A model generated the notes under the pieces. The model had not been told where the DNA came from. It saw nothing but the letters and a program-made list of their open reading frames with translations, and did not search any database. Source: a virus (Duplodnaviria > Caudoviricetes). Taken from it: 64,000 nucleotides of DNA. The stretch spans positions 1-64,000 of the IMG/VR virus record IMGVR_UViG_3300017791_000355. One strand, given 5' to 3'. Each line of letters starts with the position of its first letter. Within the stretch, counting starts at the first letter, position 1. Position numbers and translations under genes: made by a program. Positions 4,466-40,647 of this stretch are shown here, piece by piece.

Positions 4466-4741
4466 GTCCAGGGAATGAGCAGGATCCGGACCACATCCCT
4501 GGACGTCGCAAGCTCGCAGAACCACTGGCCCGACCCGGGTCCGGGCGTGGCCGAGTGACGCAAAATGCGCTCACCATGTGACGTTTTTGCGCCACTCCTG
4601 GACGAGCGTGGTCAGTGCAGTGGCTTCGCTGGACGAGCGCAAGACCTTGGAATGGCTCGCAGACTCGCAGACCCCCTCGGCGCCCACAGCCGAAATCGCG
4701 GAGTTGCCTGGACGGGCATGTTTCGTGCTCGTTCCCTGGAC

Positions 4742-4951: not shown

Positions 4952-5207
4952 GCGCATGCTTCGACCTCAGCGACGTCGTCCCGGCGATCCCCGCGCCGCG
5001 CCGGGGCGCAGCCCGCCCGCCCCCGGTCCCCGTCCGGGCACTTCGTCCCTGGACGAGCTCGCTGCGCCGGATGTAGGTGTGAAAACCCGGCACAGGGATG
5101 TATCCCTGGCGCCACAGAACGCACCGCGTCGGCGCACCGCAGCACGTGGACTTCCGCGCACTTCGCCCGTCCAGGGGAGTGGCACGCTGCACGCATATCC
5201 CCTGGAC

Positions 5208-25911: not shown

Positions 25912-26844
25912 TCATTCAGAAGCCGATGGCGTCGTGACCTTCGGTGCCAGGTCGCCCGCAAGATAGCGCAGCGCGCAGCGCGTGGTGTGTTGACCGACGT
26001 GGACGTGCTCACCGTACTCGGCGAGGAAGGTCGTGTCGCTGATGTCCTCACCGATGGTGATTGGACGGTGCTCTTCGCACATACGTTCGCGACAGAACCT
26101 GCACCACGCCCACGCGTACCCGCGTTGCACTGCCGCGAAGGTGTGGACCCAGAGCCCGTCACCGCGCGACTTGGTGTTTGCGTCGCGGTATGCGGCGACC
26201 GAGAGAGATAGGAGTCGCGATAACTCGGGGTGTTTCCAGCCCTCCTCATGTGCGTCGAGTGCGACCATGGCGAGCGGGCGAGCTTCCTCAATCAAGGCAT
26301 GAAGCAGAGCACGCTGTTCCTCGCGCTCCGCCTGCTTCTTGGACTTGAGTTGTGTGAGGCGCGCGCGAACATTCATCTCGCGCTCTGCTCGCTGCTCGAA
26401 TGTCTCGGCGAGTAATCGGCGACACTTCGTACAGTTCACGCGAGCGCGTTCTTGAGTGCCGATGTGTTGGCGTCGACCCGTGCGCGTGAAGCCGAGACGA
26501 GTTGCGCACAGCGCGCCGGATCGGGCGACCCCGCGCGAGCCTCCGTCGTACCAGTGGTACGTCGTCGCGTCCTCACGACGTCGACGCTCAGCTGCTGCAC
26601 AAGCGGCTAGACGTGCGGACTCCGCTTCCGAGATCATGCGCGCGTGCTGGTCCGTGATGCGATGATTTAGAGACGCGTAGACGTTGCACGAATAGCACGC
26701 GATCACTTCGAAACTGCTACCACGAGTCGCGATCGCCCACCCCGGACACGATCCGCGAACGACCTCGGAGGGGAACGTGCCGGGACGGTCGTCACACCGG
26801 CGGGTGCGCTTCTCGAGCCGCGCGCGGACCTGGGCAGGGGTCAC
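25912..26844 (-). CDS. Cys-rich hypothetical protein
   Basis: Several CxxC motifs; coupled to upstream gene. Confidence 0.6.
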   Translation of the reverse strand: MTPAQVRARLEKRTRRCDDRPGTFPSEVVRGSCPGWAIATRGSSFEVIACYSCNVYASLNHRITDQHARMISEAESARLAACAAAERRRREDATTYHWYDGGSRGVARSGALCATRLGFTRTGRRQHIGTQERARVNCTKCRRLLAETFEQRAEREMNVRARLTQLKSKKQAEREEQRALLHALIEEARPLAMVALDAHEEGWKHPELSRLLSLSVAAYRDANTKSRGDGLWVHTFAAVQRGYAWAWCRFCRERMCEEHRPITIGEDISDTTFLAEYGEHVHVGQHTTRCALRYLAGDLAPKVTTPSASE

Positions 26845-27140
26845 CTGTATCCACCTTCTCCGAGCAGTGCGTGCCCGCGGACCGTTAGACGGTAGGGCGT
26901 GTTCGGTCCGTCAGTCGTGATGTAGCCGTCCCGTTCGAGACGAAGGTACACGTTCAGATCCTTGATGCGATGACTCGCAGCTTTCTGCTCTGCCAACGCC
27001 TGAGGTCCTGGTGTTGTGTGGATGCCACTGACCGCTCGGTCCTTGTGCCACTGGGCATCTGCTCTCCCGAGTCGGAATTCGTCGCGACGCATGCGCTGGG
27101 CAGCGCGAACCTGGAGGAGAGCGGCGTGCATGTCGGTCAA
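26841..27140 (-). CDS. hypothetical protein (winged-helix-like C-terminus)
   Basis: LERDGYI...YRLTVRG. Confidence 0.55.
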   Translation of the reverse strand: MTDMHAALLQVRAAQRMRRDEFRLGRADAQWHKDRAVSGIHTTPGPQALAEQKAASHRIKDLNVYLRLERDGYITTDGPNTPYRLTVRGHALLGEGGYR

Positions 27141-27391
27141 GGGTTGCTCCTCAGCCGCGCGATCTGCTTGCGGATGATATCGATCGTCGGGTTCGGCAGT
27201 CCAGTCATGCCGCCGGCACGCGCGGCGATGTTCGTCGCCACCTCCGCGAGCTCGAGCGCGAGGCGCAGCGAGTCGGCGAGGCGCATGAAGTCGCCGGCCG
27301 GGACGGTGATGGGTGGCTTCTCCTTGGTCTCGGCAGCGCGTCGCGTGCCCTTGACGGAGCGGTAGGTCTCGAGAACGGTCATCTGGTGCAT
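27137..27391 (-). CDS. hypothetical protein
   Basis: CCTGGAC-ATG start on minus strand. Confidence 0.6.
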   Translation of the reverse strand: MHQMTVLETYRSVKGTRRAAETKEKPPITVPAGDFMRLADSLRLALELAEVATNIAARAGGMTGLPNPTIDIIRKQIARLRSNP

Positions 27392-27561
27392 GTCCAGGAG
27401 AGGTGCACGGCGCGTGCCGTGAGGTTGACCGTCCAGGTGGTTGAAAATGCTCCCGCTGACGCTGACGTCAGTGTGGTGATCCGGACACAGATGTGAAACT
27501 AGGCAAGCGTCGGGATGTACCTGTAACCTCGCGATAACTTGGCGTATGCCACGGTCTCTGG

Positions 27562-28505
27562 ATGCCGGTCGCTCACGTCCAGTACACCACCGTTCAGGCG
27601 TCCAGGGGGCGCCGAATCCACGCCGTGTCGCTCGTCGCCCCAACCAGGACGGCTTGCGGTCGAGCGTTCGCTGGCTGGAACGTGGCGATCAAGCGCCTGA
27701 ATTGCGGCCTCTGCAAGCGGGCTATCCTCGGTCAGAAGCTGACCCGGGGGACGACGCGGTGACGACTCTTGAGTACGTCACGATCGCCTTCGTGGTGACC
27801 GCCTCGATGGCGACGCTCGACTACGCGCACGCTCGCTACGCGGTCGCGATGATCGATTTCCGCGCTTCCCGTCGACGGTGGAACCTTCGCGCCGGTCTCT
27901 GGTCGCTTGTGCAGTGGAGCGCCGGCGCGGTCGCGTTCTACGTGAACGTGCGTGTGTCGATGTGGTTTCTGCCTTTCGAGGGGCTTGGATTGCTGCTGGG
28001 AACGCTGCTCGGCTCTGCGCGGTCCAGGGAAGCGCGTCGCTAGTCCAGGAGTTCTCTGAGCGATGGCGTGGCATCACGTTGAGGACCAGGAGACGGTCGC
28101 ACCAAAGTACGAGCTGCTACCCTGGCGCGATCGTTTTGGAGCTGCCCGAGTACACATTGGGAAGAAGGCTACCGGAGCGAACGTCACCGTCACGCACGCG
28201 ATCTGGCGCTGCGGGAACTGTCGAGCTCTCGCAGTGACCGAGGCGGGCACTAGACCGACCGGGAACTGCGGAAAGTGTGGGGCGCGAGGGTGACGTTGCT
28301 CCTCGCGCTCATCTCAGTGTTCGTGCTTGTCGTCGCGACTGGACCTGTCGGTGTTGAGGTCCGCGAGCGCCGCCGAGCTCGGAGACAGCTCAGACTCGAC
28401 AGGCCGCTCGCGAAGGTCATCTACCTGCCGACGGCCGCGTGTCGCCCTCGAGAGAGCGACTTGACGACGGACGTCTCGGATGCCAAACAAGGAGCTGCGG
28501 AGTAG
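27562..28505 (+). other. four small ORFs (27562-27762, membrane protein 27759-28043, Zn-ribbon 28063-28293, 28290-28505)
   Basis: Coupled ORFs with CxxC or TM features. Confidence 0.55.
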
Positions 28506-28567
28506 AGCAGAAGCAGCTCGCCAGGCTCATAACCTGGAGGTCGAAGGTGCGAGTCCTTCTTCCGCTA
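28496..28567 (+). tRNA. tRNA-Met(CAT), possibly initiator-like (1:72 mismatch)
   Basis: CCAGG-CTCATAA-CCTGG anticodon arm. Confidence 0.85.
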
Positions 28568-28634
28568 CGAACACATGACGACTCTCCGACTACCTCGACT
28601 TCTCGCGGCGCGATTGCGCGCTCGCTAGAGATCC

Positions 28635-28706
28635 GTCGCGGTAGCCCAACGCAGAGGCAGCAGGTTGAGAGCCTGTCCAGTGAGGGTGCAAATCCCTTCC
28701 GCGGCA
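28635..28706 (+). tRNA. tRNA-Leu(GAG), short variable arm
   Basis: GCAGG-TTGAGAG-CCTGT. Confidence 0.8.
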
Positions 28707-28711
28707 CGCAC

Positions 28712-28785
28712 GCCATCGTGGTCTAACTGGTAACGGCGTCCGGCTCAGGCCCGGAAGATTCAGGGTTCGAATCCCTGCGGTGGTA
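28712..28785 (+). tRNA. tRNA-Leu(CAG), short variable arm
   Basis: TCCGG-CTCAGGC-CCGGA; GTTCGAATC T-loop. Confidence 0.85.
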
Positions 28786-28790
28786 CTCAC

Positions 28791-28863
28791 GTCGACGTAG
28801 TCCAACGGTAGAGGCGGCGAGTTCAAACCTCGCGCGTTGCAGGTTCGAATCCTGTCGTCGACA
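28791..28863 (+). tRNA. tRNA-Leu(CAA), short variable arm
   Basis: GCGAG-TTCAAAC-CTCGC. Confidence 0.88.
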
Positions 28864-29394
28864 CTAATCGACCCAATTCATTAAAAGATCGAGGCGATAC
28901 CACATCCGGTTCACGGCGTAGAGTGACGCGGGCTTTTCCGACCTCAAGTTGAATCGAAACTCGCTGTACTCCGCCTTGTACATCTCGACCGCGCGACCAC
29001 CGAACTCGACGTTCGCGATGCGATCGGCGAGTTTCAGGGCAATCGCGCGTTCCCCCGTGACGCGAATCTTCGGGTAGGTCAGCGCGTTGCGTGTCTTGCG
29101 GTTCGGACCATCCTCCGAGGTCACGGCTGAGACAAGCATCCCGACGTCCTCGCCGAAGATCTCCTCGATGTCCCGCACGCGCACCTCGTTCTGCTTGCCA
29201 CGAGTATCCTCGATGACGTCGTGAAGCCATGATGCGGCTTGCAGCTCCACGTCCTGATAGACCGCCTCGTACTTGATGAGGACGCGCTCGACGTCCGCGC
29301 AGTGGTGCGTGTACGGTACGACTCCGTAGAGCTGGCGGTTGTCGAGAACGTGCTTCTGGGTGGCGAACATCTTAGCCTGGGTGATGAGATCCAT
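28864..29394 (-). CDS. HD-domain (p)ppGpp-hydrolase-like protein (SpoT-HD/Mesh1 type)
   Basis: PYTHH, AASWLHDVIEDT, FGEDVGMLVSAVT, LKLADRIAN. Confidence 0.88.
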   Translation of the reverse strand: MDLITQAKMFATQKHVLDNRQLYGVVPYTHHCADVERVLIKYEAVYQDVELQAASWLHDVIEDTRGKQNEVRVRDIEEIFGEDVGMLVSAVTSEDGPNRKTRNALTYPKIRVTGERAIALKLADRIANVEFGGRAVEMYKAEYSEFRFNLRSEKPASLYAVNRMWYRLDLLMNWVD

Positions 29395-29453
29395 CCTGAG
29401 AGAACTCCCCGGCCGATGGACGACTTTCGAAAATCGTCACGTCCAGGGAAGTG

Positions 29454-29482
29454 TTGACGTCGTCCAGGAGTTGTAGTAGACA
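29454..29482 (+). promoter_or_regulatory. candidate sigma70-type promoter of the tRNA operon
   Basis: TTGACG-17 nt-TAGACA, with GTCCAGG(G) motifs at 29441 and 29462. Confidence 0.5.
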
Positions 29483-29491
29483 CAAGCAGCC

Positions 29492-29611
29492 ATGATGAAC
29501 CGAATCGACAATCAGAACGCGAAGGGCGCCGAAGGGCGCGGTCGCGAGTGGTGTGTCGACAGGTATCACCAGGCCACCAACCCAACGTTTCCCAAGGAGG
29601 CCCTCGACTAG
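29492..29611 (+). CDS. putative attenuator leader peptide MMNRIDNQNAKGAEGRGREWCVDRYHQATNPTFPKEALD
   Basis: 39 codons ending about 30 nt before a terminator; its 3' end pairs with the terminator 5' arm. Confidence 0.65.
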   Translation: MMNRIDNQNAKGAEGRGREWCVDRYHQATNPTFPKEALD

Positions 29612-29641
29612 GTAGACCGGCGCGAAGCTGAACCAGATCGA

Positions 29642-29680
29642 GGGCCGCCCCGGATGAAACCGAGGCGGCTTTTCTGTTTC
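29642..29680 (+). terminator. intrinsic terminator (attenuator) directly before tRNA-Tyr
   Basis: GGGCCGCC-C-CGG-ATGAAA-CCG-A-GGCGGCTT followed by a T-rich tract. Confidence 0.8.
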
Positions 29681-29681
29681 T

Positions 29682-29766
29682 GGGTGAGCAGACCGGCATG
29701 GTTCCGGGCGTGACTGTAGATCACGCGGCCCTAGGGTCCAGGAAGGTTCGATTCCTTCTTCACCCA
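29682..29766 (+). tRNA. tRNA-Tyr(GTA)
   Basis: CGTGA-CTGTAGA-TCACG; long variable arm. Confidence 0.85.
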
Positions 29767-29829
29767 CTCTCTGACAAAAGAATAGTGAATGATGATGATG
29801 ACGACGCGGGCGCTCGTGGCCCGCATCAT

Positions 29830-29901
29830 TCGGGGTTCGTTCAACTGGTAGGACAACAGACTCTGACTCTGTGAACGAAGGTTCGATCCCTTCACCCCGA
29901 A
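29830..29901 (+). tRNA. tRNA-Gln(CTG)
   Basis: ACAGA-CTCTGAC-TCTGT. Confidence 0.9.
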
Positions 29902-29906
29902 CGAAT

Positions 29907-29979
29907 GTCTCTCAAGCTAACCAAGTGAAAGCGCCTCCCTGAAGAGGAGGAGAGCTCGGCGCGCTACCGAGGGGAGACA
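29907..29979 (+). tRNA. tRNA-Phe(GAA), atypical T-loop
   Basis: CCTCC-CTGAAGA-GGAGG. Confidence 0.75.
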
Positions 29980-30016
29980 CGCAGGGAAGCCTGGAACTAG
30001 CTCTAGGAGTTCCTAT

Positions 30017-30092
30017 GGGTCGCTAGTGTCAATGCAGCACACCGGTCTCTTACACCGTGTTAGTGAGAGTTCAAGTCTCTCGCGACCCACCA
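30017..30092 (+). tRNA. tRNA-Lys(CTT)
   Basis: CGGT-CTCTTAC-ACCG; encoded CCA. Confidence 0.8.
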
Positions 30093-30094
30093 CC

Positions 30095-30529
30095 TTGAAG
30101 AAGTGTTCCGTCTGCAAACGTAGAAGACATCGCGATGCCTTCAATAAGAAGTCGAAGAGTCGAGACGGACTTCAGGCTCACTGTCGGGAGTGTAGCCACG
30201 CGAAGTTTGCTCGATATTATCGCGAGAACCGCCTCAAGCATTTACAGAATGTTCGAGAAGACAAGAGACGACTCCTGGCGAAGATTCGCGAACTGCTGTG
30301 GGAGTACTTTAGGACGCATCACTGTGTCGACTGCGGCGAACAGGATCCGATCGTGTTGGAGTTTGATCATGTTCGAGGTAAGAAGCGCGAAAACGTGACA
30401 ACACTCGTTAGGAGCGGCAGTAGTTGGCCTGCGATCCTTCGAGAAATCGAAAAGTGCGATGTACGTTGCGCGAATTGTCACAAGCGCGCAACATACCTAC
30501 GTTCTGGTTGTTGGCGACTGAACATGTAA
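30095..30529 (+). CDS. HNH endonuclease
   Basis: CVDCGEQDPIVLEFDH...CDVRCANCH; ORF-track start overlaps tRNA-Lys, so TTG at 30095 is used. Confidence 0.85.
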   Translation: MKKCSVCKRRRHRDAFNKKSKSRDGLQAHCRECSHAKFARYYRENRLKHLQNVREDKRRLLAKIRELLWEYFRTHHCVDCGEQDPIVLEFDHVRGKKRENVTTLVRSGSSWPAILREIEKCDVRCANCHKRATYLRSGCWRLNM

Positions 30530-30530
30530 C

Positions 30531-30604
30531 GCATCCACCACTCTATGGAGAGTACCCGGCCTTTACCCGGAGCTGAGAGGGTTCGATTCCTTCTGGATGC
30601 ACCA
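30531..30604 (+). tRNA. tRNA-Lys(TTT)
   Basis: CCGG-CCTTTAC-CCGG; CCA. Confidence 0.8.
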
Positions 30605-30665
30605 GTACAGAAACGGCATCGCATGCGCTCGCTGGAGTGACGGCGATGTACGCCTGGCTGACCTT

Positions 30666-30737
30666 CGGGGTGTGGCCTAATGGTAAGGCACGTGGTTTGG
30701 GACCATGGGAGTGCAGGTTCGAGTCCTGTCGCCCCGA
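30666..30737 (+). tRNA. tRNA-Pro(TGG)
   Basis: CGTGG-TTTGGGA-CCATG. Confidence 0.9.
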
Positions 30738-30882
30738 CGATGTTTGGAGGTCGCCCGATCGACCTACCCGCGCGGACGCGTGCGAGGCAAACGATGAAGC
30801 AGAAGCTGAACAACGGCACGCGCTCGCCGAAAGCGAGAAAGCGTCGTTACGATGCGAGGGAGCCGAGTCGGTTCGGAGTACT

Positions 30883-30955
30883 GCAGGCGAGGCCGACTGG
30901 TGAGGCCCTTCGTTGCCAACGAAGAACAGGATGGGTTCGATTCCCACCGTCTGCT
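30883..30955 (+). tRNA. tRNA-Gly(GCC)
   Basis: CTTCG-TTGCCAA-CGAAG. Confidence 0.85.
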
Positions 30956-31021
30956 CGACGCGTTACGAGATTCGTCCGGTGGGTGACTATCGGAGCGGGA
31001 GCATGACCCGCAGCGCGACAC

Positions 31022-31091
31022 GCAGACTTTGCTCCAGGCGAGCAAGCAGCCTTCCAAGCTGCCCAGACGGGTTCGAGTCCCGTAGTCTGCT
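31022..31091 (+). tRNA. tRNA-Gly(TCC)
   Basis: GCAGC-CTTCCAA-GCTGC. Confidence 0.85.
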
Positions 31092-31172
31092 CTATGACGT
31101 CCCGCAGCGAGGAGCCTACACGCAACTCGATTGGAACTCGAAACACGAGCTCCTCGCACTCGGACGTCTCTC

Positions 31173-31247
31173 GCTCCTCTGATCCAGCAGCAACGATGCC
31201 TGCTTCGTACGCAGGACACGCCGGTGCAATTCCGGCGAGGAGCTCCA
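31173..31247 (+). tRNA. tRNA-Thr(CGT)
   Basis: CCTGC-TTCGTAC-GCAGG; CCA. Confidence 0.8.
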
Positions 31248-31306
31248 AGACAGATCGTGGGTGGGGCGGACAGCCCGCCAAATTTCGCAACCTCCCACGA
31301 TCGCCT

Positions 31307-31378
31307 GCTGCACGTAGTCCTCGAGCGAGGGCCCCTGTTTTGTACTCAGGAGAGGCGGTGCGACTCCGACGAGCAGCT
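31307..31378 (+). tRNA. tRNA-Thr(TGT), degenerate
   Basis: CCTGT-TTTGTAC-TCAGG; stem mismatches. Confidence 0.55.
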
Positions 31379-31383
31379 CGATT

Positions 31384-31457
31384 GCGTCTCTAGTATCTCT
31401 GGTGAGTACGGCGGTTTGTTAATCCGAGAGAGGTTGGTTCGATTCCAACGAGACGCG
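31384..31457 (+). tRNA. tRNA-Asn(GTT)
   Basis: TTGTTAA loop; GGTTCGATTCC; weak anticodon stem. Confidence 0.75.
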
Positions 31458-31629
31458 CGATGTCGACGGTCTGCCCTACAGAGGTGGAAGACCAAAGAAC
31501 AGGGTTCGAGTCCCGGACATGCCCATTTAGTAGTTACCGATCCTCCGACGAAGAGTCTCCCGGCACGGGCCGGCGGTGAGAGTCGAGCGAGCGACCCGCG
31601 AGGGCGAGCGACTCGGTGAAGAGGGCCAC

Positions 31630-31700
31630 GCACTTGTCCCGACGGGTTCGGGCGCCACCACGACAAGGTGGACGCGCAGGTTCGATTCCTGACTGGTGCA
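31630..31700 (+). tRNA. tRNA-Val(GAC)
   Basis: CCACC-ACGACAA-GGTGG. Confidence 0.7.
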
Positions 31701-31774
31701 CCGGATGCCTGAAGAACAGAGGGCTACTCATTCGTCGATGCCGTGGAAACACGAACGCGACGTTGTCCCGCCAT

Positions 31775-31850
31775 GTCGCGATCCTCCAACTGGCTAGGAG
31801 TTCGGCTTCTCACGCCGACAATCGGGGTTCGAGTCCCCGTCGCGATACCA
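31775..31850 (+). tRNA. tRNA-Glu(CTC)
   Basis: TCGGC-TTCTCAC-GCCGA; CCA. Confidence 0.9.
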
Positions 31851-31851
31851 T

Positions 31852-31919
31852 CAGGCCCTGACTGATAGTCGCTCACTGCGCAGGTGGGAGGGGCGGTGTA
31901 ACTCCGTCGGTCCTGACCA
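31852..31919 (+). tRNA. atypical tRNA-like element (nominal anticodon CGC) with CCA end
   Basis: CTCAC-TGCGCAG-GTGGG; tiny D arm; TGTAACT T-loop. Confidence 0.45.
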
Positions 31920-31920
31920 T

Positions 31921-31989
31921 ACCCTCGACGTATAGAACGAGCCTCGGGCTACGAACTCGAGAGAGCGGGTGCGATACCTGCCGGGGGTA
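31921..31989 (+). tRNA. tRNA-Arg(ACG)
   Basis: TCGGG-CTACGAA-CTCGA. Confidence 0.75.
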
Positions 31990-32067
31990 CGAATCAACAG
32001 TGGTCTGTTGACTCACAGTCGGAGTCGAGAAGTCAACCGCCAGACCAGGCGTTCCGACAGGTCACAT

Positions 32068-32140
32068 AGGTCGCGCATGCTGGGCATGGCTTCGGCACCA
32101 AACCGAATGCAGGTGGGTTCGATTCCTACGCGGCCTGCCA
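32068..32140 (+). tRNA. tRNA-Trp(CCA)
   Basis: TTCGG-CACCAAA-CCGAA; G73; CCA. Confidence 0.8.
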
Positions 32141-32141
32141 T

Positions 32142-32213
32142 CGCAGACAGGCATGGTGTTCGACGCGGCTCATATCCGCGGTCGCGAGGGTTCGATTCTC
32201 TCGTCTGCGACCA
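32142..32213 (+). tRNA. tRNA-Met or Ile2 (CAT)
   Basis: CGCGG-CTCATAT-CCGCG; CCA. Confidence 0.8.
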
Positions 32214-32314
32214 CTTTCGACTTCGCACAATGGCCGGCAGGCGCCTAAGAACTGCACGCAAACCGCGTCGCTCTCAGGCGACGATGTTAGGCGGCGGGGT
32301 CGCGAGAAAAACAT

Positions 32315-32386
32315 CAGAGCGTAGCGAAGCGGTATCGTACTCGGCCCGGAACCGAGGGATCGCAGGTTCGAATCCTGCCGCTCTGA
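32315..32386 (+). tRNA. tRNA-Pro(CGG)
   Basis: CTCGG-CCCGGAA-CCGAG. Confidence 0.85.
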
Positions 32387-32392
32387 CGACAT

Positions 32393-32461
32393 GGCGAGAG
32401 TCCTGGGAGACAGACGAGGCCTACACCCTTGTCTTGCTCGGTTCGATTCCGAGTCTCGCTA
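32393..32461 (+). tRNA. tRNA-Val(TAC)
   Basis: CGAGG-CCTACAC-CCTTG. Confidence 0.7.
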
Positions 32462-32468
32462 CTGATTC

Positions 32469-32540
32469 CCGCCCATAGCACAACAGTAAGTGCAGTCGCT
32501 TGATAAGCGATTGATCGAGGTGCAACTCCTCGTGGGCGGA
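32469..32540 (+). tRNA. tRNA-Ile(GAT)
   Basis: GTCGC-TTGATAA-GCGAT. Confidence 0.85.
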
Positions 32541-32542
32541 CT

Positions 32543-32614
32543 GTGGCCGTGTTCCAACGGTCAAGATGTCTGGTTGTGTCCCAGACGATCGGGGTTCGAT
32601 TCCCCGCGGCCACC
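32543..32614 (+). tRNA. tRNA-His(GTG)
   Basis: TCTGG-TTGTGTC-CCAGA; C73; genomic -1 base is T. Confidence 0.85.
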
Positions 32615-32641
32615 CGAACACGCTAAACCAAGGAGAGGAAG

Positions 32642-33175
32642 ATGTCCGACGCGCAAGTACTCGTGCTCGATCAGTCGTACCGACCTCTCCAGGTCGTGCA
32701 CTGGACTGCTGCAATCACGATGCTCTTTACGTCCAAGGCCGAGGTCGTCGCCGAGTACGACGGCTTCGTTCGCTCGCAGTTGCTCGTGATCAAGATGCCG
32801 GCGGTGATTCGCCTGCTCAACGCGTTCCGGCGTCGGAGCAAGAAGGTCAAGTTCTCGCGCGTGAACATCTACGCTCGCGACAACTACGAGTGCCAGTACT
32901 GCGGTGAGCGCAAGCGGATGGGCGAGCTCACGTACGACCACGTCGTGCCGCGCTCGCAGGGAGGCAAGACGGACTGGACGAACATTGTGTCGTGCTGCAC
33001 AGAGTGCAACGCGAAGAAGGCGAACCGGACGCCGGAGCAGGCGCGCATGCGGCTGCGCAAGCGACCTGTACAGCCGACGCAGGAGCCCGCGATCGTGCTC
33101 CAGCTCTCGCGGGACAACGTGCCGGACGCGTGGAGGGACTACCTGTACTGGACTTCGGAGTTGGAGCAGGGATGA
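32642..33175 (+). CDS. HNH endonuclease (McrA-like)
   Basis: VLVLDQSYRPL, IYARDNYECQYCG, TYDHVVPRSQGGKTDWTNIVSCCTECNAKK. Confidence 0.92.
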   Translation: MSDAQVLVLDQSYRPLQVVHWTAAITMLFTSKAEVVAEYDGFVRSQLLVIKMPAVIRLLNAFRRRSKKVKFSRVNIYARDNYECQYCGERKRMGELTYDHVVPRSQGGKTDWTNIVSCCTECNAKKANRTPEQARMRLRKRPVQPTQEPAIVLQLSRDNVPDAWRDYLYWTSELEQG

Positions 33176-33351
33176 CCTTCGCGCAGCACCTCGAGCTCGC
33201 GCGCGGCAGCCTGACGAAGGCGCGTCGCGAGTACATCCGCGAGCGAATGTGGCGTGGTGATGAGTGGTACGAGGAGTGGCTGCGAGGCCTCGGCGACGAG
33301 GTCGAGAGCGCGGCGAGACAGTTCGGGTCGTCGAGCAGAGTGGTGAGATGA
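33172..33351 (+). CDS. small hypothetical protein
   Basis: ATGA-coupled to HNH gene. Confidence 0.5.
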   Translation: MTFAQHLELARGSLTKARREYIRERMWRGDEWYEEWLRGLGDEVESAARQFGSSSRVVR

Positions 33352-33569
33352 CACCTAGTGGGGTGTGCGCCACGATGAAGCGAAACGACCAAGTCCCCGT
33401 CGACGATGATTTTCCAAGTTGATCGTTGGGTCGTCGACGGGGGCGGTGCACTAGTTCGTAAAGCCGAAGCCCGTCGAGGTAGCGCCTCGATAGGTGAAGG
33501 CACGGCGCCCGAGGGGGAACCTCACCGCTAAGCGGAGCCGCAAGAGCCGTTGAGTCGGCCTCGGGTATT

Positions 33570-33643
33570 GGGTCTGTAGCTCTCTGGTTGAGGGCGCTTG
33601 ATTGTCGATCAAGATCAGGCGGGTTCGATCCCCGTTAGGCCCG
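33570..33643 (+). tRNA. tRNA-Asp(GTC)
   Basis: CTTGA-TTGTCGA-TCAAG; G73. Confidence 0.85.
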
Positions 33644-33648
33644 CGTTC

Positions 33649-33722
33649 GGGTAGGCATGTTCCAAGGAGGCGAGCTGCACTTGCAATGCGGCTGTTGGTC
33701 GGTTCGATTCCGATCCTATCCA
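33649..33722 (+). tRNA. tRNA-Ala(TGC)
   Basis: CTGCA-CTTGCAA-TGCGG; G3:U70. Confidence 0.85.
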
Positions 33723-33820
33723 CAATGACGAGAGGTTCGACTCCTCTGAAACTTGGAGCGTCAGAAACCGTGTGCCGCATGTTCGACTCGTGCATTCGGC
33801 GGATCCGAGCACACGTCACT

Positions 33821-33890
33821 GCTCCGAGTCTGTGGTCAGCACGCAGTCCTTGGTATGGACAGCGGCGCGGTTCGATTCCGCGACGGAGCT
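33821..33890 (+). tRNA. tRNA-Thr(GGT)
   Basis: GTCC-TTGGTAT-GGAC. Confidence 0.7.
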
Positions 33891-33974
33891 CCGACGTAAG
33901 CACGACGTGATGGGTTTTCGGTGGTTTCCCAGAAAGCCGAGACCGGCAGGTACGTGCATACTGCCCGGCAACAT

Positions 33975-34048
33975 TCAGGCGTAGTTCAATTGGTAGAACC
34001 GGAGGCCTTGACCCTCTGTGTGCGTGGGTTCGAACCCTACCGCCTGAA
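33975..34048 (+). tRNA. tRNA-Gln(TTG)
   Basis: GGAGG-CCTTGAC-CCTCT. Confidence 0.85.
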
Positions 34049-34171
34049 CTCTCCCGGGTAGCAACCGGAAGCCGACATCGATGGCAGGCCTCATGAACCT
34101 GCGGGAGAGTGTCGGCGGGACTAGGTCCGGAGTCGCGCTCCACTGGACGGAGTCATGCCCGTCCTGACGAT

Positions 34172-34247
34172 GCACTGGCGTGGCAGGACCACACGGCCGA
34201 TTGCAACCCGGCTCGGCGTTAGGGTGCGAGACCCTCCCAGTGCTCCA
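34172..34247 (+). tRNA. tRNA-Cys(GCA)
   Basis: GCCGA-TTGCAAC-CCGGC; U73; CCA. Confidence 0.75.
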
Positions 34248-34248
34248 C

Positions 34249-34316
34249 ACCTTGCACGATGGATCGAACCCGGAGCTTCTAACTCTGGCGGCCCGGTTCA
34301 ATTCCGGGGCGAGGTA
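34249..34316 (+). tRNA. tRNA-Arg(TCT)
   Basis: CGGAG-CTTCTAA-CTCTG. Confidence 0.75.
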
Positions 34317-34327
34317 CTATCTCGACC

Positions 34328-34636
34328 ATGATGAGGGCCACGATGTTCTTGATCGTCCTGACCGGGTGTCCGACGAAGCAGGAAGAGGCACAGGTGAAGC
34401 GCGAACTCGAGGAGGAGACCAAGAAGGCAGAGGTTGAGTTCAACCAGAAGGTCATCGACGAGGCGATCGCACAGTACCAGATGGTTGCGCGGGCCGGACT
34501 GAAGCAGGAGATGTGTCTCCGTGCCGGCATCGTGGTTGAGGCCCACCTCCAGGCGAAGCAGGAGGAGGACTGGCGGGTGTGGAAGCAGATCCAGTACAGG
34601 GACTGTAAGAAGGCCGGCATCCCGGTCATGAAGTAG
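34328..34636 (+). CDS. putative lipoprotein
   Basis: Lipobox VLTGC. Confidence 0.65.
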   Translation: MMRATMFLIVLTGCPTKQEEAQVKRELEEETKKAEVEFNQKVIDEAIAQYQMVARAGLKQEMCLRAGIVVEAHLQAKQEEDWRVWKQIQYRDCKKAGIPVMK

Positions 34637-34639
34637 TTC

Positions 34640-34708
34640 GCTCTTGACCGAGGACGTTGACCGGGTTTCCTAAACCTGGATCCGCAGGTTCGATTCCTGC
34701 CAGGAGCA
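34640..34708 (+). tRNA. tRNA-Arg(CCT)
   Basis: CGGGT-TTCCTAA-ACCTG. Confidence 0.75.
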
Positions 34709-34771
34709 CGGGGGTGGCGTTGCTACAACGCAAAGCGAGCGTCGAGCGCACGATGTCTCGCCCTCCACCAA

Positions 34772-34839
34772 GTCTCCGCGCATGGACGCGACTCGGGCCT
34801 CCGAAGCTCGACGAGCGGGTTCGATCCCCGCCGGTGACA
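34772..34839 (+). tRNA. tRNA-Arg(CCG)
   Basis: CGGGC-CTCCGAA-GCTCG. Confidence 0.75.
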
Positions 34840-34843
34840 CTTC

Positions 34844-34916
34844 GGCGTCGGTTCACTACTGGTGTGGTCGTCGGATTTTCAACCCGACCCTCGGAGTTCG
34901 ATTCTCCCCGACGTCA
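34844..34916 (+). tRNA. tRNA-Glu(TTC)
   Basis: TCGGA-TTTTCAA-CCCGA. Confidence 0.75.
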
Positions 34917-35038
34917 CTAACTAGGTCGTCATCATCACTCGCTATTCAAGAAAGTGAGCGCATGCGCACGCTTTGTGAAAGCGGAGCCGGGGTCCGGAGG
35001 TTGTACCTGGACACCGTTACCTATCACAAAGGAACTGC

Positions 35039-36379
35039 ATGAAGATGTTCAAGTTGTCACTGCTCATGGTCTGCGTACTTGCTTGGCCCGTCGCTGCCGC
35101 AACACCAGACAGCGTTGGAAACAACGACAAACTCGCCAGCGGCTACGATGCAACGTGCATCATCGAGGGTACGACGCTCTATTGCTGGGGCCCGAACGCG
35201 ATGGGAGCCGTCGGTGACGGGACCACGACTGCGAGGTCGAACGCGAATCAGTATCAGCACAGTGGTTCGTGGAAGTCGGTCTCCAGTAACTGGGGACACA
35301 CGTGCGCGATCAACTCGAGCGACGAACTGTATTGCTGGGGCAAGAACGATAACGGGCAGCTCGGGCAGGGCGACTTGACCGATCGTAGCTCGCCTACCCG
35401 CGTCGGAACCGCCACCTACTATCGCGTCGCGAACGGCTCGCAACACACGTGCGCGATCCGCAAGTCACCGAACGCGAATACCGACGGCAACGGTAACTCC
35501 GACATGTATTGCTTCGGTGACAATGCATACGGTCAGGTTGGCGACGGGACGACGACCGACCGCACCACCCCGACTCTCGCCAGTGTCAAGTCGGTCTTCG
35601 TGGCCGCCGGGTGGGGGCACACGTGCATCATCACGGCGACGTCCGGAACTACTCGCATCCTCTCTTGCGTCGGACAAAACAACTACGGTCAGCTCGGGGA
35701 CAACACGACGACGAATAATTCGGCGTGGCAGGCGCCTCGAAAGTCGGATGGCACCGCCATCACGATGAACTACGTCAGCAAGCTCGCCGCCAACACCTAT
35801 CAGACGTGCGTGATTGGCGGACTGACTTCGACGAACTCCGAACTTCGCTGCTGGGGCAACAACAGTCAGAGCGCGGTCGGGGATCCGTCGGCGTCGTTCG
35901 TGAAGTACGTCCCGACGTCAGCGAAGTGCATGCCGTCAGCGGCGCACTTCGGACGCACCTCGATTGGCTGGAACATCTGCAGTGGCTTCACTGAGGTATC
36001 TGTCGGGTACCAGCACGTCGTGTCGATCTGGGACGCCACGTGGACGCAGCAGAATCCATTCTACGCGTACCACGAGGGACTGCACGTCGTAGGCATGGGC
36101 TGGGGTGCCTTCGATCAGTTTGCCCAGTACGGTAGCGGGTCCGGTTTCAACTCGACGTCAAACTTGGTCGTGTTCGATGAGCCTGACGGCTCCTGTTACA
36201 ACGATAACTGCAGCGGTGTCGCTGGTTACACGGGATATGCGCTCGGTGTCGCGGGCGGGTGGTACCGGTCCTTCGGTTACTACGCCGTGCATGCCTTCCG
36301 CGAGTACGGTACCGACACTTCGTATCCGTCACCTCCCTGGCTTCAGTCCGTCATCGACGCTCAGGGTTGGGAGTACTGA
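35039..36379 (+). CDS. secreted RCC1/BLIP-II repeat beta-propeller protein
   Basis: Signal peptide; repeated HTCAI...LYCWGxNxxGQLG. Confidence 0.9.
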   Translation: MKMFKLSLLMVCVLAWPVAAATPDSVGNNDKLASGYDATCIIEGTTLYCWGPNAMGAVGDGTTTARSNANQYQHSGSWKSVSSNWGHTCAINSSDELYCWGKNDNGQLGQGDLTDRSSPTRVGTATYYRVANGSQHTCAIRKSPNANTDGNGNSDMYCFGDNAYGQVGDGTTTDRTTPTLASVKSVFVAAGWGHTCIITATSGTTRILSCVGQNNYGQLGDNTTTNNSAWQAPRKSDGTAITMNYVSKLAANTYQTCVIGGLTSTNSELRCWGNNSQSAVGDPSASFVKYVPTSAKCMPSAAHFGRTSIGWNICSGFTEVSVGYQHVVSIWDATWTQQNPFYAYHEGLHVVGMGWGAFDQFAQYGSGSGFNSTSNLVVFDEPDGSCYNDNCSGVAGYTGYALGVAGGWYRSFGYYAVHAFREYGTDTSYPSPPWLQSVIDAQGWEY

Positions 36380-36380
36380 C

Positions 36381-36875
36381 CTATCGAGGAGCGAGTTGCA
36401 GGTCGAACTCAATCGACGCGGGCTCGTTCTCGTAAGTCACCAACGTCCACGTCATCTTCCCGCGCCAGACACCCGCATCGTCCACGACGAGCGTGGTGGG
36501 CTGGCGCGCGCCCGTAGAGTCCTGAATGACAGTACCGGGAACCTGAACCCTAAGATGTTGATCATCGACTGTAGTTGACGGGACCGAACTCTCGAATTCG
36601 TGACTGTCGGGCGCGAATCGCCACAGCGGGAGGTCCCAGTAGTTCTCCTGCTCCACCCACCCAACAGTATCTCGAGTGAAGAAGTTGCAGAGCTCCGGCG
36701 TGCAGTCGATCGGCTGTCTCGAGTCGCCGTTGACCTTGGCGATGAGTGTCGGGTGGAGCCACCGCAGCTCGTACCGCGGTGCCCACGGAAAGACCTCGAG
36801 AGGCATCGGTTCCGGCTTTGGTTCTTGAGATACGCACGCGGCGACGAAGACCGCAGAAGTCACGACTTTCAGCAC
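36381..36875 (-). CDS. putative lipoprotein
   Basis: FVAAC lipobox-like sequence. Confidence 0.55.
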   Translation of the reverse strand: MLKVVTSAVFVAACVSQEPKPEPMPLEVFPWAPRYELRWLHPTLIAKVNGDSRQPIDCTPELCNFFTRDTVGWVEQENYWDLPLWRFAPDSHEFESSVPSTTVDDQHLRVQVPGTVIQDSTGARQPTTLVVDDAGVWRGKMTWTLVTYENEPASIEFDLQLAPR

Positions 36876-37035
36876 GCACTCATCCTAGACCCTGCCTCCG
36901 ACGAAGATCAAGCTCGAACGCGTTCCCTGGACGAACCGACGAACGTCGGCTAAACAAGAGCATCGTGTTCTCCATCTCATCCCAGTCGAGTACGTCGCGC
37001 TCCGCGAGCTCCCGCTCGTCGGCGCGCTAACTCCT

Positions 37036-37123
37036 GGAGCATGAGGTGGGCGGGTGCCCACACCCGTCTCGAAAACGGGCCCACGGCCGAGAGGTCGTGC
37101 GGGTTCGAGTCCTGCTTGCTCCG
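37036..37123 (+). tRNA. tRNA-Ser(CGA)
   Basis: CCCGT-CTCGAAA-ACGGG; long variable arm; G73. Confidence 0.88.
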
Positions 37124-37129
37124 CTATCT

Positions 37130-37212
37130 GGAAGGTAAACCGGCGAGGAGCCGGCGCCGGCCGCTACCCGGTTGGGACCGACAGGTCTGGGCTTCGAGTG
37201 CTCTGCCTTCCA
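37130..37212 (+). tRNA. tRNA-Ser(GCT)
   Basis: GCCGG-CCGCTAC-CCGGT; long variable arm. Confidence 0.75.
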
Positions 37213-37253
37213 CGAATTGAAAGTGCAGACTCGCATCAGCGGTTTCTCAACAG

Positions 37254-37658
37254 ATGCCAGAGAACAGCGATCCTCCCGGAAACCCGCTGAGCGCACTGCT
37301 CGGACGACCGTCTGAATCGGATGAGTCCAAGAAGCAGAAGGGCAAGCCGAAGGTCGAGAAACCGAAGTCGCTTGACCTGATGCACGCCGAATCAGGTTTG
37401 CCTGATCTCGACGCCGAGATCGTGAAGTCACCTGGTCCGCAGCCACCATTCCCTGTCGGAATGCAGGTCCGCTACGGCGGCTCGCGTCGACTATTCGCGG
37501 GCTGGGAGCTCAGCATGATCCTCGTCCCAGGCATGGAGTTCAAGATTGAGGAAGTCGTCGGCCGCTACAGTGTGGTCGTGACTGACGTCTACGGCGTCCG
37601 TTATGACATGCTCATCTCCGACGAGAACAAGGCCGAGTGGTCTCTGGTACAGAGGTGA
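37254..37658 (+). CDS. hypothetical protein
   Basis: ORF track. Confidence 0.55.
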   Translation: MPENSDPPGNPLSALLGRPSESDESKKQKGKPKVEKPKSLDLMHAESGLPDLDAEIVKSPGPQPPFPVGMQVRYGGSRRLFAGWELSMILVPGMEFKIEEVVGRYSVVVTDVYGVRYDMLISDENKAEWSLVQR

Positions 37659-37954
37659 AGGTCGAGGACATCTCGTGGTGCTCGGACGATTCGGAGACGC
37701 GACGCGTCGTTGCTCAGGTCGTAGGATGCGCGAAGACGTGGCGAGAGACAGAGTGCATGTTCGCGAAGACCACTCTCGGAGTCCCGGAGTGTCATCGCTG
37801 TAACGGCGAGAATCATCGCGAGAACTGTCCGGTCGAACTCACACGCCAGGACCTCATCGCCGCGCTCGACAAGTTCGACGCGCACAAGGTTCGGATACTA
37901 GACCGTTGGTAGACGCTTAGTTGCAAGTATCGTGCCAGGGGCGTACCCTGGACG

Positions 37955-39394
37955 GTGCTTCTCGACGTACATCACGATAGACTCCCCGCACTTGCGGCCC
38001 CGCTGGTCGCGCGCGTATTCCAGGGACGTGCCGCTCGCGTTCACAGTCGCGGGGACGGTCTTCGGTATCGCCTGCGAGACGGCTCCTATCGTGAGGAGTT
38101 GCGCGATCAGGCCGAGCTCGAGCGCGTGGTTCGCCAATTGGTGGGCAAGCCGGTCTGCTTGCTGCACCCGGACTCGTCCGAGCAGAATCACCGCGGAGTA
38201 ATCGCTGACGGGGCGACGGCCGACATCATTGGCCGAATCGTCGCGGCCCGACTGGTCGACGGCTACGCCGTCGTCGACATCGCCGTCACCGCGAGTCACG
38301 GGATCGACGCCGTTGAACGAGGCATCCGCGAGCTCTCGCTAACCTATCGCTGCGACCTCGACGACGCCGGTTATCAGCGAAACACCGAGGTCGACCACCT
38401 CGCGGTCCTGCCCCGCGGCCGATGCGGCGCTGGTTGCGCGGTTCGGGCGGACTGCGACGGGGCCGAGGACTGCGGTTGCGAGATCAACACCGACGGAAAC
38501 CTCAGCGCGCGCGAGCGGCGCTCCCTGGACGACTCCTTCGCCGTTCCAGAGAACGAGGGTCTACCGATCCACGATCAGGAGCATCCCGCTGGAGTCCAGG
38601 GATGTGCGTGCAAGGGTCTTGCCAAGTCCCTGGACGTCGGTCAATCTGCAATTCACATGCCAACGGCATCGGACACGGACAAGGACAAGGCGCCCATGGA
38701 CGAACTCCAGAGGAAGCTCGCCGAGGCTCAGGCCGAGGCCAACGCGCAGAAGGTTCGCGCTGACCAGGCCGAGGCGGCCCGTGACGCAGCTCGGCTCGAG
38801 GCTCTCGAGAATCGCTCCGAGGCGAAGACTGCCGAGACCGAGCGCACTCGTGCGGACCAGGCCGAACAGGGTCTGAAGGTCGCGAACGAGCAGATCAAGA
38901 CTCTCACCGCTCAGTTCGAGACCCAGAAGACCCGCGCCGACGAGGCCGAGCGTCTTCGCGCCGACGAGGCCGCCAGTGTCGACGCTCGCATCGATGCAGC
39001 TGTCGACGTGAAGGTCGCACTGATCGCCGAGGCAGCACCGATCATCGGCAAGAACGAGAAGGGCGAGGCCGTCGATCTCTCGAAGATGAGTGATCGCGCG
39101 ATCAAGTGCGCGGTCGTTCTGCGCGTCGACGGTGTCGACCTCGAGACCCTCGACCCGAAGCCCAGTGCCGACTTTGTGTCCGGCGCCTACGCAGGTGCTG
39201 TCAAGCGCCACGCTCGCGTCGCGTCCTCGCGCGCGGCAGTCGAGAAGGACGTCGCCGTCATGATCGACTCGTCCAAGGTCGAGTCGAAGGGTGACGAGGT
39301 CACGGGTTCGGAAGCCGAGAAGCGCGGCACCGACAAGATTCGCAACAGCCTGAGCTCGGCGTGGAAGAAGCCCGCGCAGAAGGACAAGGAGTAG
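37955..39394 (+). CDS. DUF2213-type head maturation protease/scaffold fusion
   Basis: GKPVCLLHP, GIRELSLTY, QRNTEVDHLAVLPRGRCG; coiled-coil C-terminus with RAD repeats. Confidence 0.85.
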   Translation: MLLDVHHDRLPALAAPLVARVFQGRAARVHSRGDGLRYRLRDGSYREELRDQAELERVVRQLVGKPVCLLHPDSSEQNHRGVIADGATADIIGRIVAARLVDGYAVVDIAVTASHGIDAVERGIRELSLTYRCDLDDAGYQRNTEVDHLAVLPRGRCGAGCAVRADCDGAEDCGCEINTDGNLSARERRSLDDSFAVPENEGLPIHDQEHPAGVQGCACKGLAKSLDVGQSAIHMPTASDTDKDKAPMDELQRKLAEAQAEANAQKVRADQAEAARDAARLEALENRSEAKTAETERTRADQAEQGLKVANEQIKTLTAQFETQKTRADEAERLRADEAASVDARIDAAVDVKVALIAEAAPIIGKNEKGEAVDLSKMSDRAIKCAVVLRVDGVDLETLDPKPSADFVSGAYAGAVKRHARVASSRAAVEKDVAVMIDSSKVESKGDEVTGSEAEKRGTDKIRNSLSSAWKKPAQKDKE

Positions 39395-39398
39395 ACCC

Positions 39399-39932
39399 AT
39401 GGGTCAGCAGACCACTTACAGTACGATGCCGGCCATCGGGTACTCCGGCACCCTGGACAAGAACGCCCCGTTCAAGTGTCTGACGATGGTGAACGCCGAG
39501 GCCACCTCGGCGATCCCGTTCGGCAAGGGCGTGAAGCGCAAGTCGGGCGCGACGACCGACTTCCAGGCGACTTTTCCAGCCGCTCAGGGCGACAAGATTC
39601 TCGGCATTGTCGAGCGTCTCACGACCTACGCGCGTACCTGGACGGACGCCGACGGCAACACGCTCGGTCAGCTCAACGCGACCGGTCTCGTTCCCGGCAC
39701 GATGATGAGTGTCGCGACCGAGGGTCGCATGCTCGTGACTGTCGCGACTGGCTGCACTGCGGGTCAGGGACTTCACATCTACGCCGTCGCGAACGCCGGC
39801 AAGGTTCCCGGTGACATCGCGAACGCGGCCGACAGCACGAACACGGTCGACTGCACCACGCAGGCTCGGTTCGAGTCGTCGTGCGCTGCCGGCGGACTCG
39901 CCTGGCTCGTCTTCGACTTCGCGAACATCTAG
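39399..39932 (+). CDS. capsid decoration/cement protein
   Basis: Between scaffold and MCP; AIPFGKGV, VATEGRMLV. Confidence 0.7.
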   Translation: MGQQTTYSTMPAIGYSGTLDKNAPFKCLTMVNAEATSAIPFGKGVKRKSGATTDFQATFPAAQGDKILGIVERLTTYARTWTDADGNTLGQLNATGLVPGTMMSVATEGRMLVTVATGCTAGQGLHIYAVANAGKVPGDIANAADSTNTVDCTTQARFESSCAAGGLAWLVFDFANI

Positions 39933-39957
39933 TCCGCTCACTTAGAGGAACTGACCG

Positions 39958-40647
39958 ATGCCCTATCCACCACGCAATCCCGAGCAGAATCAGGAGTTCT
40001 TCCCGATTCTGTACGATCACGGCTCGATCTCCGCGACCACCTCGGTCAAGCGGTGGAGGGTGCCGTCGGGTCGCTCGTATCGCATCGATCGGCTCCTCTA
40101 CATCAATCCGACCGGCCTCGTCGAGGACACGACCAACGCGTGTCAGCTCGAGATCAAGACCAGCGCGTCAGCTCTGGCCGACCTGACGTTCACCGTAGCG
40201 AACGCGACCGACCTCGCCACCTCTTCGGCGCACGGCCATGTCACTGGTGCGGGCCCGTTCCGTGTGTTCAACACGGGTGGCGGTCTCCCGACCGGTCTCC
40301 TCGCGTTCACGAACTACTGGCTGATCGTCGTCTCGTCCACGACGTTCAAGTTCGCCACGTCGCGCGCCAACGCGCTCGCGGGCACGGCCATCGACCTGAC
40401 GTCCGACGGCACCGGCACGCAGACTCTGATGCGAAACCTGATCACTCAGGTCTTCCACACCGACTCGGACCTGACGCCTGACATCGGGGCGACGCTCGCA
40501 GTCAACACGTTCCTCGAGTTCACCGCGGACGTCGACGTCATGAATCGCGTCGTCGCGGGCGGCGACACCATCACCCTCGTTCACACCAAGTTCGGCACCG
40601 GCACGCTGCCGGCCGGTTCGCTGATCATCGAAGGCCGTCTCCTCTAG
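39958..40647 (+). CDS. virion structural protein with inserted beta-rich HGxxTG domain
   Basis: Position in head module; domain shared with sheath and tail completion protein. Confidence 0.65.
   Translation: MPYPPRNPEQNQEFFPILYDHGSISATTSVKRWRVPSGRSYRIDRLLYINPTGLVEDTTNACQLEIKTSASALADLTFTVANATDLATSSAHGHVTGAGPFRVFNTGGGLPTGLLAFTNYWLIVVSSTTFKFATSRANALAGTAIDLTSDGTGTQTLMRNLITQVFHTDSDLTPDIGATLAVNTFLEFTADVDVMNRVVAGGDTITLVHTKFGTGTLPAGSLIIEGRLL

Follow-up and report, generated by a model that had tools for sequence, protein, structure and literature searches.

Among the described systems closest to the element analysed here are the attenuators of amino-acid operons in E. coli and Salmonella (the trpL, hisL, leuL, thrL, multivalent ilvGMEDA and pheST leaders), in which a short leader open reading frame (ORF) and an intrinsic terminator precede the first gene, the position of the lead ribosome sets whether an antiterminator forms, and biosynthetic enzymes or synthetases are controlled. 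Attenuators with an upstream ORF (uORF) also stand before resistance genes (B. subtilis vmlR, PMC9226507; mef/mel, PMC4335068), where ribosome stalling on the uORF releases an antiterminator that precedes an intrinsic terminator; these leaders sense translation stress, namely ribosomes with a bound drug, in many cases at specific peptide motifs, and the genes under their control are of the ABCF or efflux kind. In T-box riboswitches termination is likewise governed by the charging of transfer RNA (tRNA), but one uncharged tRNA is bound directly and translation is not needed, and in the pyrBI/pyrE attenuators the outcome is likewise set by how far the lead ribosome on a leader ORF trails RNA polymerase, with the opposite logic: a close ribosome blocks the terminator, and the signal is polymerase pausing that depends on uridine triphosphate. 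Here we describe a locus within 64,000 nt of viral DNA (the window), which is the first 64 kb of the 135,661-bp record IMGVR_UViG_3300017791_000355 of an uncultured soil phage (no end repeats; estimated 90% complete), where a 39-codon leader ORF and an intrinsic terminator stand directly before a long array of tRNA genes. On the evidence set out below it is likely that this element is a leader-peptide (ribosome-mediated) transcription attenuator gating a phage tRNA operon, and the extra tRNAs would probably be made only when ribosomes decode slowly.

The locus shares with the amino-acid-operon attenuators the short leader ORF and the intrinsic terminator before the first gene; the lead ribosome's position would likewise set the antiterminator, and the putative signal is again aminoacyl-tRNA supply. 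It differs from them in that the leaders encode 17-20 different amino acids with no runs of regulatory codons, in that the genes controlled would be those of tRNAs, in being phage-borne, and in that no anti-antiterminator of the 1:2 type was found. Unlike in the vmlR and mef/mel leaders, composition here points to amino-acid or tRNA sensing, and the output is tRNA. Searches against the leader and riboswitch families of Rfam (T-box; Trp, His, Leu and Thr leaders) returned only tRNA-type matches, both at the gathering threshold over positions 26000-40000 and at E <= 1 over 28300-37400, and thus no T-box. A full-text literature search found no published account of leader-peptide control of tRNA genes.

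The window, with 63% G+C, also carries a portal gene (23533-25746, + strand) and a tail-sheath gene. Its tRNA region consists of a small cluster (Met and three Leu tRNAs, 28496-28864) followed by a long array that starts with tRNA-Tyr at 29682. Between the two groups sits an HD_4 gene on the opposite strand (28864-29394, - strand), then an intergenic region of 287 nt that holds the leader ORF, the terminator hairpin with its U-tract, and the complementarity between the ORF end and the terminator. The leader element occurs once in the phage genome, and no comparable leader was found before the upstream Met/Leu tRNA cluster. The features of the element are as follows.

29446-29482, + strand: promoter-like region (GGGAAG at 29446-29451, 18 nt, GTT at 29470-29472)
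29492-29611, + strand: leader ORF (39 codons) that starts at a tandem ATG, stops at TAG and has 19 of the 20 amino acids
29505-29559, + strand: P1, a long imperfect hairpin within the ORF, with an inner GC hairpin at 29526-29539
29596-29607, + strand: s1, GGAGGCCCTCGA, 5' strand of the predicted antiterminator, made up of the last ORF codons; the stop codon (29609-29611) starts 1 nt later
29618-29630, + strand: small hairpin between s1 and s2, closing the antiterminator junction
29638-29649, + strand: s2, TCGAGGGCCGCC, partner of s1 (antiterminator) or of s3 (terminator, with s2 as its 5' arm)
29643-29679, + strand: intrinsic terminator (stem 29644-29653/29660-29669, loop 29654-29659, U-tract 29670-29679)
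29682-34917, + strand: tRNA array that would be gated, from tRNA-Tyr to tRNA-Glu(TTC), covering ~18 amino acids and including no Leu or Ser tRNA

The two strands s1 and s2 are complementary at 11 of 12 positions, with a perfect core of 9 nt, a length reached by 18 of 20,000 shuffles of the ORF tail (0.09%) and by 26 of 9,043 genomic 30-mers. The terminator hairpin, GCCGCC/GGCGGC plus CGG/CCG, is followed by TTTTCTGTTT and ends 2 nt short of tRNA-Tyr; a simple terminator scan overlooked it owing to an internal mismatch. An intrinsic terminator lies between the ORF and the first gene of the array, and the s1:s2 helix both competes with the 5' arm of that terminator and can be masked by a ribosome at the ORF end. 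The leader ORF, the terminator next to tRNA-Tyr and the s1/s2 complementarity all stand as they were given in an initial annotation of this DNA. The minimum-free-energy fold of 29488-29685 is the antiterminator form (z = -3.9).

We examined these features in a set of 11 leaders, comprising the window and ten relatives, all of them uncultured viruses. Seven of the 11 were found without any constraint on leader sequence; the sequences are related to one another, and P values calculated as if they were independent therefore overstate the evidence. Homologues of the portal protein, 45-85% identical, are present in metagenome assemblies, and all six retrieved portal relatives with a tRNA array carry the element immediately 5' of tRNA-Tyr, in a common layout that runs from a Met/Leu cluster through opposite-strand genes to the leader ORF, the terminator and tRNA-Tyr. 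The element is missing from three relatives that carry no array close to the portal gene. A DNA pattern that combined the Trp-Cys-Val codons with the cores of s1 and s2 yielded, among many false matches, four more leaders, each followed by tRNA-Tyr and a long array.

In all 11 leaders the free fold pairs s1 with s2, and masking of 40 nt, which mimics a ribosome at the stop codon, gives the terminator instead (-21 to -27 kcal/mol), followed in every case by a U-tract. RNAalifold, applied to the whole leader, selects s1:s2 as the consensus helix, and the s1:s2 cells are paired at 99% across the 11 sequences, with one compensatory pair. The terminator stem shows changes on both sides at 5 of 10 pairs, a covariation attained by 0 shuffles, and the small hairpin between s1 and s2 is upheld by different sequences, with 3 of its 4 pairs changed on both sides. 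The s1 sequence itself is unchanged in 10 leaders, six of which read it as Gly-Gly-Pro-Arg and four, shifted by one base, as Glu-Ala-Leu-Asp/Glu, while L018, the eleventh, has a variant form of this second frame; the stop codon nevertheless follows s1 by 1-7 nt in every leader. Since s1 is kept though read in two frames, with the stop always near, it is the RNA sequence and the end point of translation that are conserved. The initial annotation had named the absence of a uORF or of pairing in homologues as an outcome that would count against it; in fact all ten relatives keep the ORF, the position of its stop, the antiterminator pairing and the terminator.

The leader ORF has the marks of a coding sequence. 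Homologous ORFs in the ten relatives are 30-42 codons long; frame 0 is open in 11 of 11 leaders (the chance of staying open after shuffling is 0.28-0.44 per leader), frame +1 is interrupted by stops in nine, and the frame is kept open despite ~40% nucleotide divergence and several indels. The start codon, frequently a double ATG, keeps a constant spacing to a conserved promoter motif. An ORF with a start codon is thus maintained in the 5' leader, as in known attenuators, and is presumably translated. G+C at the three codon positions (GC1/GC2/GC3) is 0.54/0.56/0.80 in the leader vs 0.64/0.49/0.81 in phage genes, and GC3 is the highest of the three in all 11 leaders, even in the poorly conserved N-terminal half; the rare and AT-rich codons that the leader had been thought to favour are accordingly not enriched. 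The leader peptide has no family match in Pfam.

In particular, near-complete amino-acid coverage is actively maintained in the leaders. The 11 peptides (30-42 residues) contain 19, 17, 19, 19, 19, 20, 20, 20, 20, 20 and 19 distinct amino acids, where windows of equal length from the phage proteome average ~15, and the coverage has P values of 0.0002-0.016 for ten leaders and 0.2 for L004. The window leader taken alone, with 19 of 20 amino acids (Ser missing), is only mildly unusual (P 0.013-0.04), which bears out the caution, voiced at the outset, that a single 39-mer may be this diverse by chance. Each amino acid is used about once or twice, and runs of one or a few regulatory codons, the clustering seen in classical leaders, do not occur. 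We conclude that coverage is maintained because the two halves of the peptide compensate for each other: the core motif is 65% identical across leaders and the N-terminal halves only 25% identical to each other, but His and Tyr, where missing from the core, turn up in the otherwise unconserved N-terminal half, and the two halves of each leader are more complementary than halves exchanged between leaders (208 vs 197.3 +/- 2.2, with 208 attained in 0 of 100,000 permutations). For the seven leaders found without a leader-based pattern the half-complementarity has an exact P of 0.0008.

The one amino acid that the leaders avoid is Leu. Before s1 it is observed 3 times vs 28.6 expected (P = 6e-10), an approximately tenfold depletion that is also seen in the N-terminal halves alone (P = 8e-5), while all other amino acids have observed/expected ratios of 0.6-1.9. 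Eight of the 11 leaders have no Leu at all before s1, and in 10 of the 11 phages the Leu tRNA genes precede the leader and are not part of the unit that would be gated; in the remaining one (L055), four Leu tRNA genes lie inside the array (4633-5008) and the leader has Leu at codon 9, which makes L055 a natural test case for a leader content that mirrors the array. In the window there is neither a Leu nor a Ser codon upstream of the antiterminator strand, and, as annotated initially, the Leu tRNA genes (28635-28864) and the Ser tRNA genes (from 37036) are located outside the array, the latter separated from it by 2.1 kb of protein-coding genes. Conversely, Ser is present in the leaders of three relatives whose array closes directly with a Ser tRNA; the numbers are small and point in the same direction as those for Leu. 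Coverage, half-complementarity and Leu depletion together support the description of the leader as 'pan-amino-acid'.

Several observations weigh against the proposed attenuator. With pN/pS (the ratio of non-synonymous to synonymous polymorphism) at 0.83 and the three codon positions varying equally, there is no classical purifying selection on the peptide, as would be expected, on the other hand, if the leader product were itself without function. Leader codons match phage tRNAs at 87%, within the 79-93% of phage genes, so that there is no signal of a codon-level match, and the quantity sensed would be the combined pool of host and phage. The conserved core holds much of the diversity in amino acids, which is therefore partly inherited, not independently evolved; leader and array content are also imperfectly matched, with a Leu at codon 3 or 2 in L102 and L018 despite the upstream location of their Leu tRNA genes, and no Phe in the L004 leader though its array has a tRNA-Phe gene. 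As regards the RNA, 10 of the 11 leaders have an unchanged s1:s2 core and direct covariation comes from L018 alone, the pattern by which four of the leaders were found itself requires the cores of s1 and s2, only 3-6 nt at the base of the terminator stem beside the U-tract are shared by antiterminator and terminator, and in the window and L018 one minimum-free-energy fold has a shortened terminator hairpin alongside the antiterminator. Additionally, no clear Shine-Dalgarno sequence is evident before the leader ATG, and the predicted 5' untranslated region is only about 11-13 nt long.

Four other explanations of the locus have to be weighed against attenuation by aminoacyl-tRNA supply. The same architecture might report general translation status (ribosome availability, shut-off or antibiotics), the spread of amino acids being incidental. 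The ribosome-free state reads through in the folds, so any loss of translation would induce the array, and the leader codons are ordinary and unmatched to the phage tRNAs; such a signal would, however, leave unexplained the near-complete coverage, the relocation of His and Tyr, the half-complementarity and the specific tenfold lack of Leu, and we consider it unlikely. Quite improbable is an independent small-protein gene with a functional peptide and an ordinary terminator, the array being expressed via leaky read-through: its core (Trp-Cys-Val ... Tyr-Gln-Ala .. Asn-Pro-Thr) is indeed 65% identical across leaders and its GC3 gene-like, but the C-terminus is read in two frames while the RNA sequence is retained, the N-terminal half reaches only 25% identity with pN/pS at 0.83, Pfam holds no family for the peptide, the gap between terminator and tRNA-Tyr is too short for a promoter, and the conserved s1:s2 pairing would have no role.

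The opposite proposal, an untranslated structured 5' leader (for processing or stability, protein-binding or riboswitch-like) in which the open frame is incidental, would account for the strong conservation of core nucleotides at all three codon positions, for the stable folds (z = -3.9) and for the lack of an evident Shine-Dalgarno sequence. We nonetheless judge it very improbable, considering that the frame is open in 11 of 11 leaders despite the ~40% nucleotide divergence and the indels, that the positions of ATG and stop are conserved in both frame types, that the GC3 periodicity holds in all 11, that the composition statistics are meaningful only at the amino-acid level, and that Rfam gives no match. 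Finally, an arrest peptide of the TnaC or SecM kind, whose Trp-containing core stalls the ribosome on a small molecule or factor, might be read from the invariant Trp-Cys-Val codons and from the Pro/Gly-rich codons near the stop in six leaders. Yet the last 4-8 residues are wholly different between the two frame types and the core lies 12-15 codons from the stop, at a distance that varies with indels and not at the fixed distance of TnaC- and ErmCL-type peptides, which makes arrest very improbable.

Returning to the attenuator that we favour, we infer translation of the leader, its promoter and transcription start, the timing or coupling of ribosome and polymerase, and the direction of the response from the architecture of the element, its conservation and its composition. 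Transcription would start ~10-13 nt 5' of the ATG and a ribosome would translate the 39-codon leader. Were that ribosome to reach the stop codon while the polymerase transcribes the next ~70 nt, s1 would be covered, s2 would pair with s3, and the resulting terminator would stop transcription 2 nt before tRNA-Tyr. Were it to lag within the first ~31 codons, or never to load, s1 would pair with s2, which would remove the base of the terminator stem beside the U-tract and let the polymerase continue into ~29 tRNA genes. With nearly every amino acid present once or twice, the time taken to read the leader would integrate nearly all aminoacyl-tRNA supply, and the outcome would be negative feedback, with tRNA genes transcribed as the need arises; the leader omits Leu, which has its tRNA genes outside the gated unit. 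We found no anti-antiterminator (1:2 pairing) involving s1 (P1 lies wholly upstream of s1, and the free folds pair s1 with s2), so an untranslated leader should read through, not super-attenuate. The 3' strand of P1 is the invariant TGGTGYGTC (29549-29557), which encodes Trp-Cys-Val, and a comparable hairpin is predicted in 11 of 11 leaders, built from differing 5'-arm sequences; as a speculation, P1 may be an RNA polymerase pause or synchronizing hairpin.

The promoter-like region has the layout GGGAAG-N18-GTT, which resembles extracytoplasmic function (ECF) promoters of the SigR/SigH type, and overlaps a sigma-70-like candidate, TTGACG (29454-29459) and TAGACA (29477-29482) at a spacing of 17. 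The latter, proposed as the promoter in the initial annotation, is present; TTGAC/TTGCC is also retained in relatives but the position of TAGACA, the -10 element, is not, whereas GGGAA(N)-N17/18-GTT is found 14-22 nt 5' of the ATG in 10 of 11 leaders (L021 has GTA), and the assignment is uncertain. The phage genome encodes one protein of the sigma-70 family (77097-77297). A search with a loose promoter expression gave no genome-wide enrichment, and GGGAAG-N19-GTT at 29984-30011, before tRNA-Lys, was rejected as an internal promoter, being not conserved in relatives. GTCCAGG and its complement occur 62 and 73 times in the genome, often immediately 5' of start codons, and the composite GGGAAG-N10-GTCCAGGAGTT is present twice, before the ORF at 28063 (28027-28053) and before the leader (29446-29472); GTCCAGG and the GGGAAG composite may represent a phage-specific promoter or operator family.

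With regard to the array itself, ARAGORN at default settings finds 18 tRNAs in 29682-34317 and Rfam adds four; the earlier figure of ~29 tRNAs for 18 amino acids is reached only by relaxed ARAGORN settings together with synteny with relatives. The additional calls are plausible because relatives have Phe, Val, Trp and Cys tRNAs at matching positions, and the gene order Tyr-Gln-(Phe)-Lys... is shared with them. A tRNA-Phe-like gene (anticodon GAA, 29907-29980) is detected only with the relaxed settings and has near-identical odd counterparts in L102 (from 15946) and L018 (from 19247); several further members of the array are likewise missed by default detection. An HNH endonuclease gene (32642-33175, + strand) lies inside the array, as it does in L004, L005, L020 and L102. 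A conserved hairpin (GACGCGGGC / GCCCGCATC) adjoins the 5' end of tRNA-Gln (29790-29829 in the window, 7035-7062 in L005), preceded in the window by four consecutive ATG codons and lacking a U-tract; this hairpin might serve in processing or act as another small regulatory element.

The relatives were reached by several routes. A blastn search of 28800-30100 against public phage genomes matched only the tRNA-Gln, a single-sequence scan of IMG/VR with the portal protein gave no matches, relatives of the HD gene in IMG/VR had no tRNA arrays, and a portal alignment scan of IMG/VR returned 80 loci that mostly had the C-terminal domain alone in common, with no leader and no arrays. That domain, PF18823 (InPase), forms the C-terminus of the portal protein and is by itself common to many unrelated IMG/VR phages; some homologues are labelled 'anti-CBASS Acb1 family' at NCBI. 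A 17-mer scan gave only chance matches in coding sequence. In the pattern scans, 3 of 59 metagenome matches were true leaders, to which L021 was added from the scan of viral contigs; most of the remaining metagenome matches lay in one recurrent protein-coding gene that meets the pattern by coincidence. The scan of genome contigs produced 16 matches, none of them true, and hence no prophage copy and no host. A closer relative, on a soil-metagenome contig (run X1), was compared with 29394-29771: from s1 to s2 (29577-29650) it is ~95% identical, while the promoter and N-terminal leader are swapped (182 nt by 170 nt), as is 29651-29770 (120 nt by 523 nt).

Between the Met/Leu cluster and the leader lies a slot that is always occupied by opposite-strand genes tied to RNA or nucleotide repair, namely HD_4 (RelA/SpoT-type hydrolase fold) in the window and RtcB ligase, NADAR with HD_4, or TROVE/Ro60 with vWA in relatives; RtcB was searched for in the genome of the window phage and is absent there. 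The slot has the following coordinates.

Window, 28864-29394, - strand: slot genes
L004, 14881-17627: slot genes
L020, 10580-11824: slot genes
L102, 13906-15002: slot genes
L018, 17103-18725: slot genes

Together with the array, these genes look like a tRNA supply-and-repair island. The neighbouring repair genes (HD_4 here; RtcB, NADAR and Ro60 in relatives) may be a hint of host-tRNA cleavage as the trigger. We suggest, tentatively and as an unlikely extension of the attenuator, that the leader might act as an infection-time alarm for host immunity directed at tRNAs (anticodon nucleases, tRNA pyrophosphorylating toxins), in which the cutting or blocking of any host tRNA would stall the leader ribosome and call up a near-complete replacement set.

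Why phages carry tRNAs is currently debated, between codon compensation and escape from tRNA-targeting defences (PMC10264068, PMC11464382), and how phages control their own tRNA genes is largely unexplored. The omission of Leu across leaders, together with the placing of Leu tRNA genes outside the gated unit, provides a sharp and falsifiable prediction. If the attenuator proposed here is correct, it would control decoding capacity by feedback, put the classical principle of attenuation to a new use, and offer a compact natural 'translation speedometer', directly testable and reusable as a sensor.

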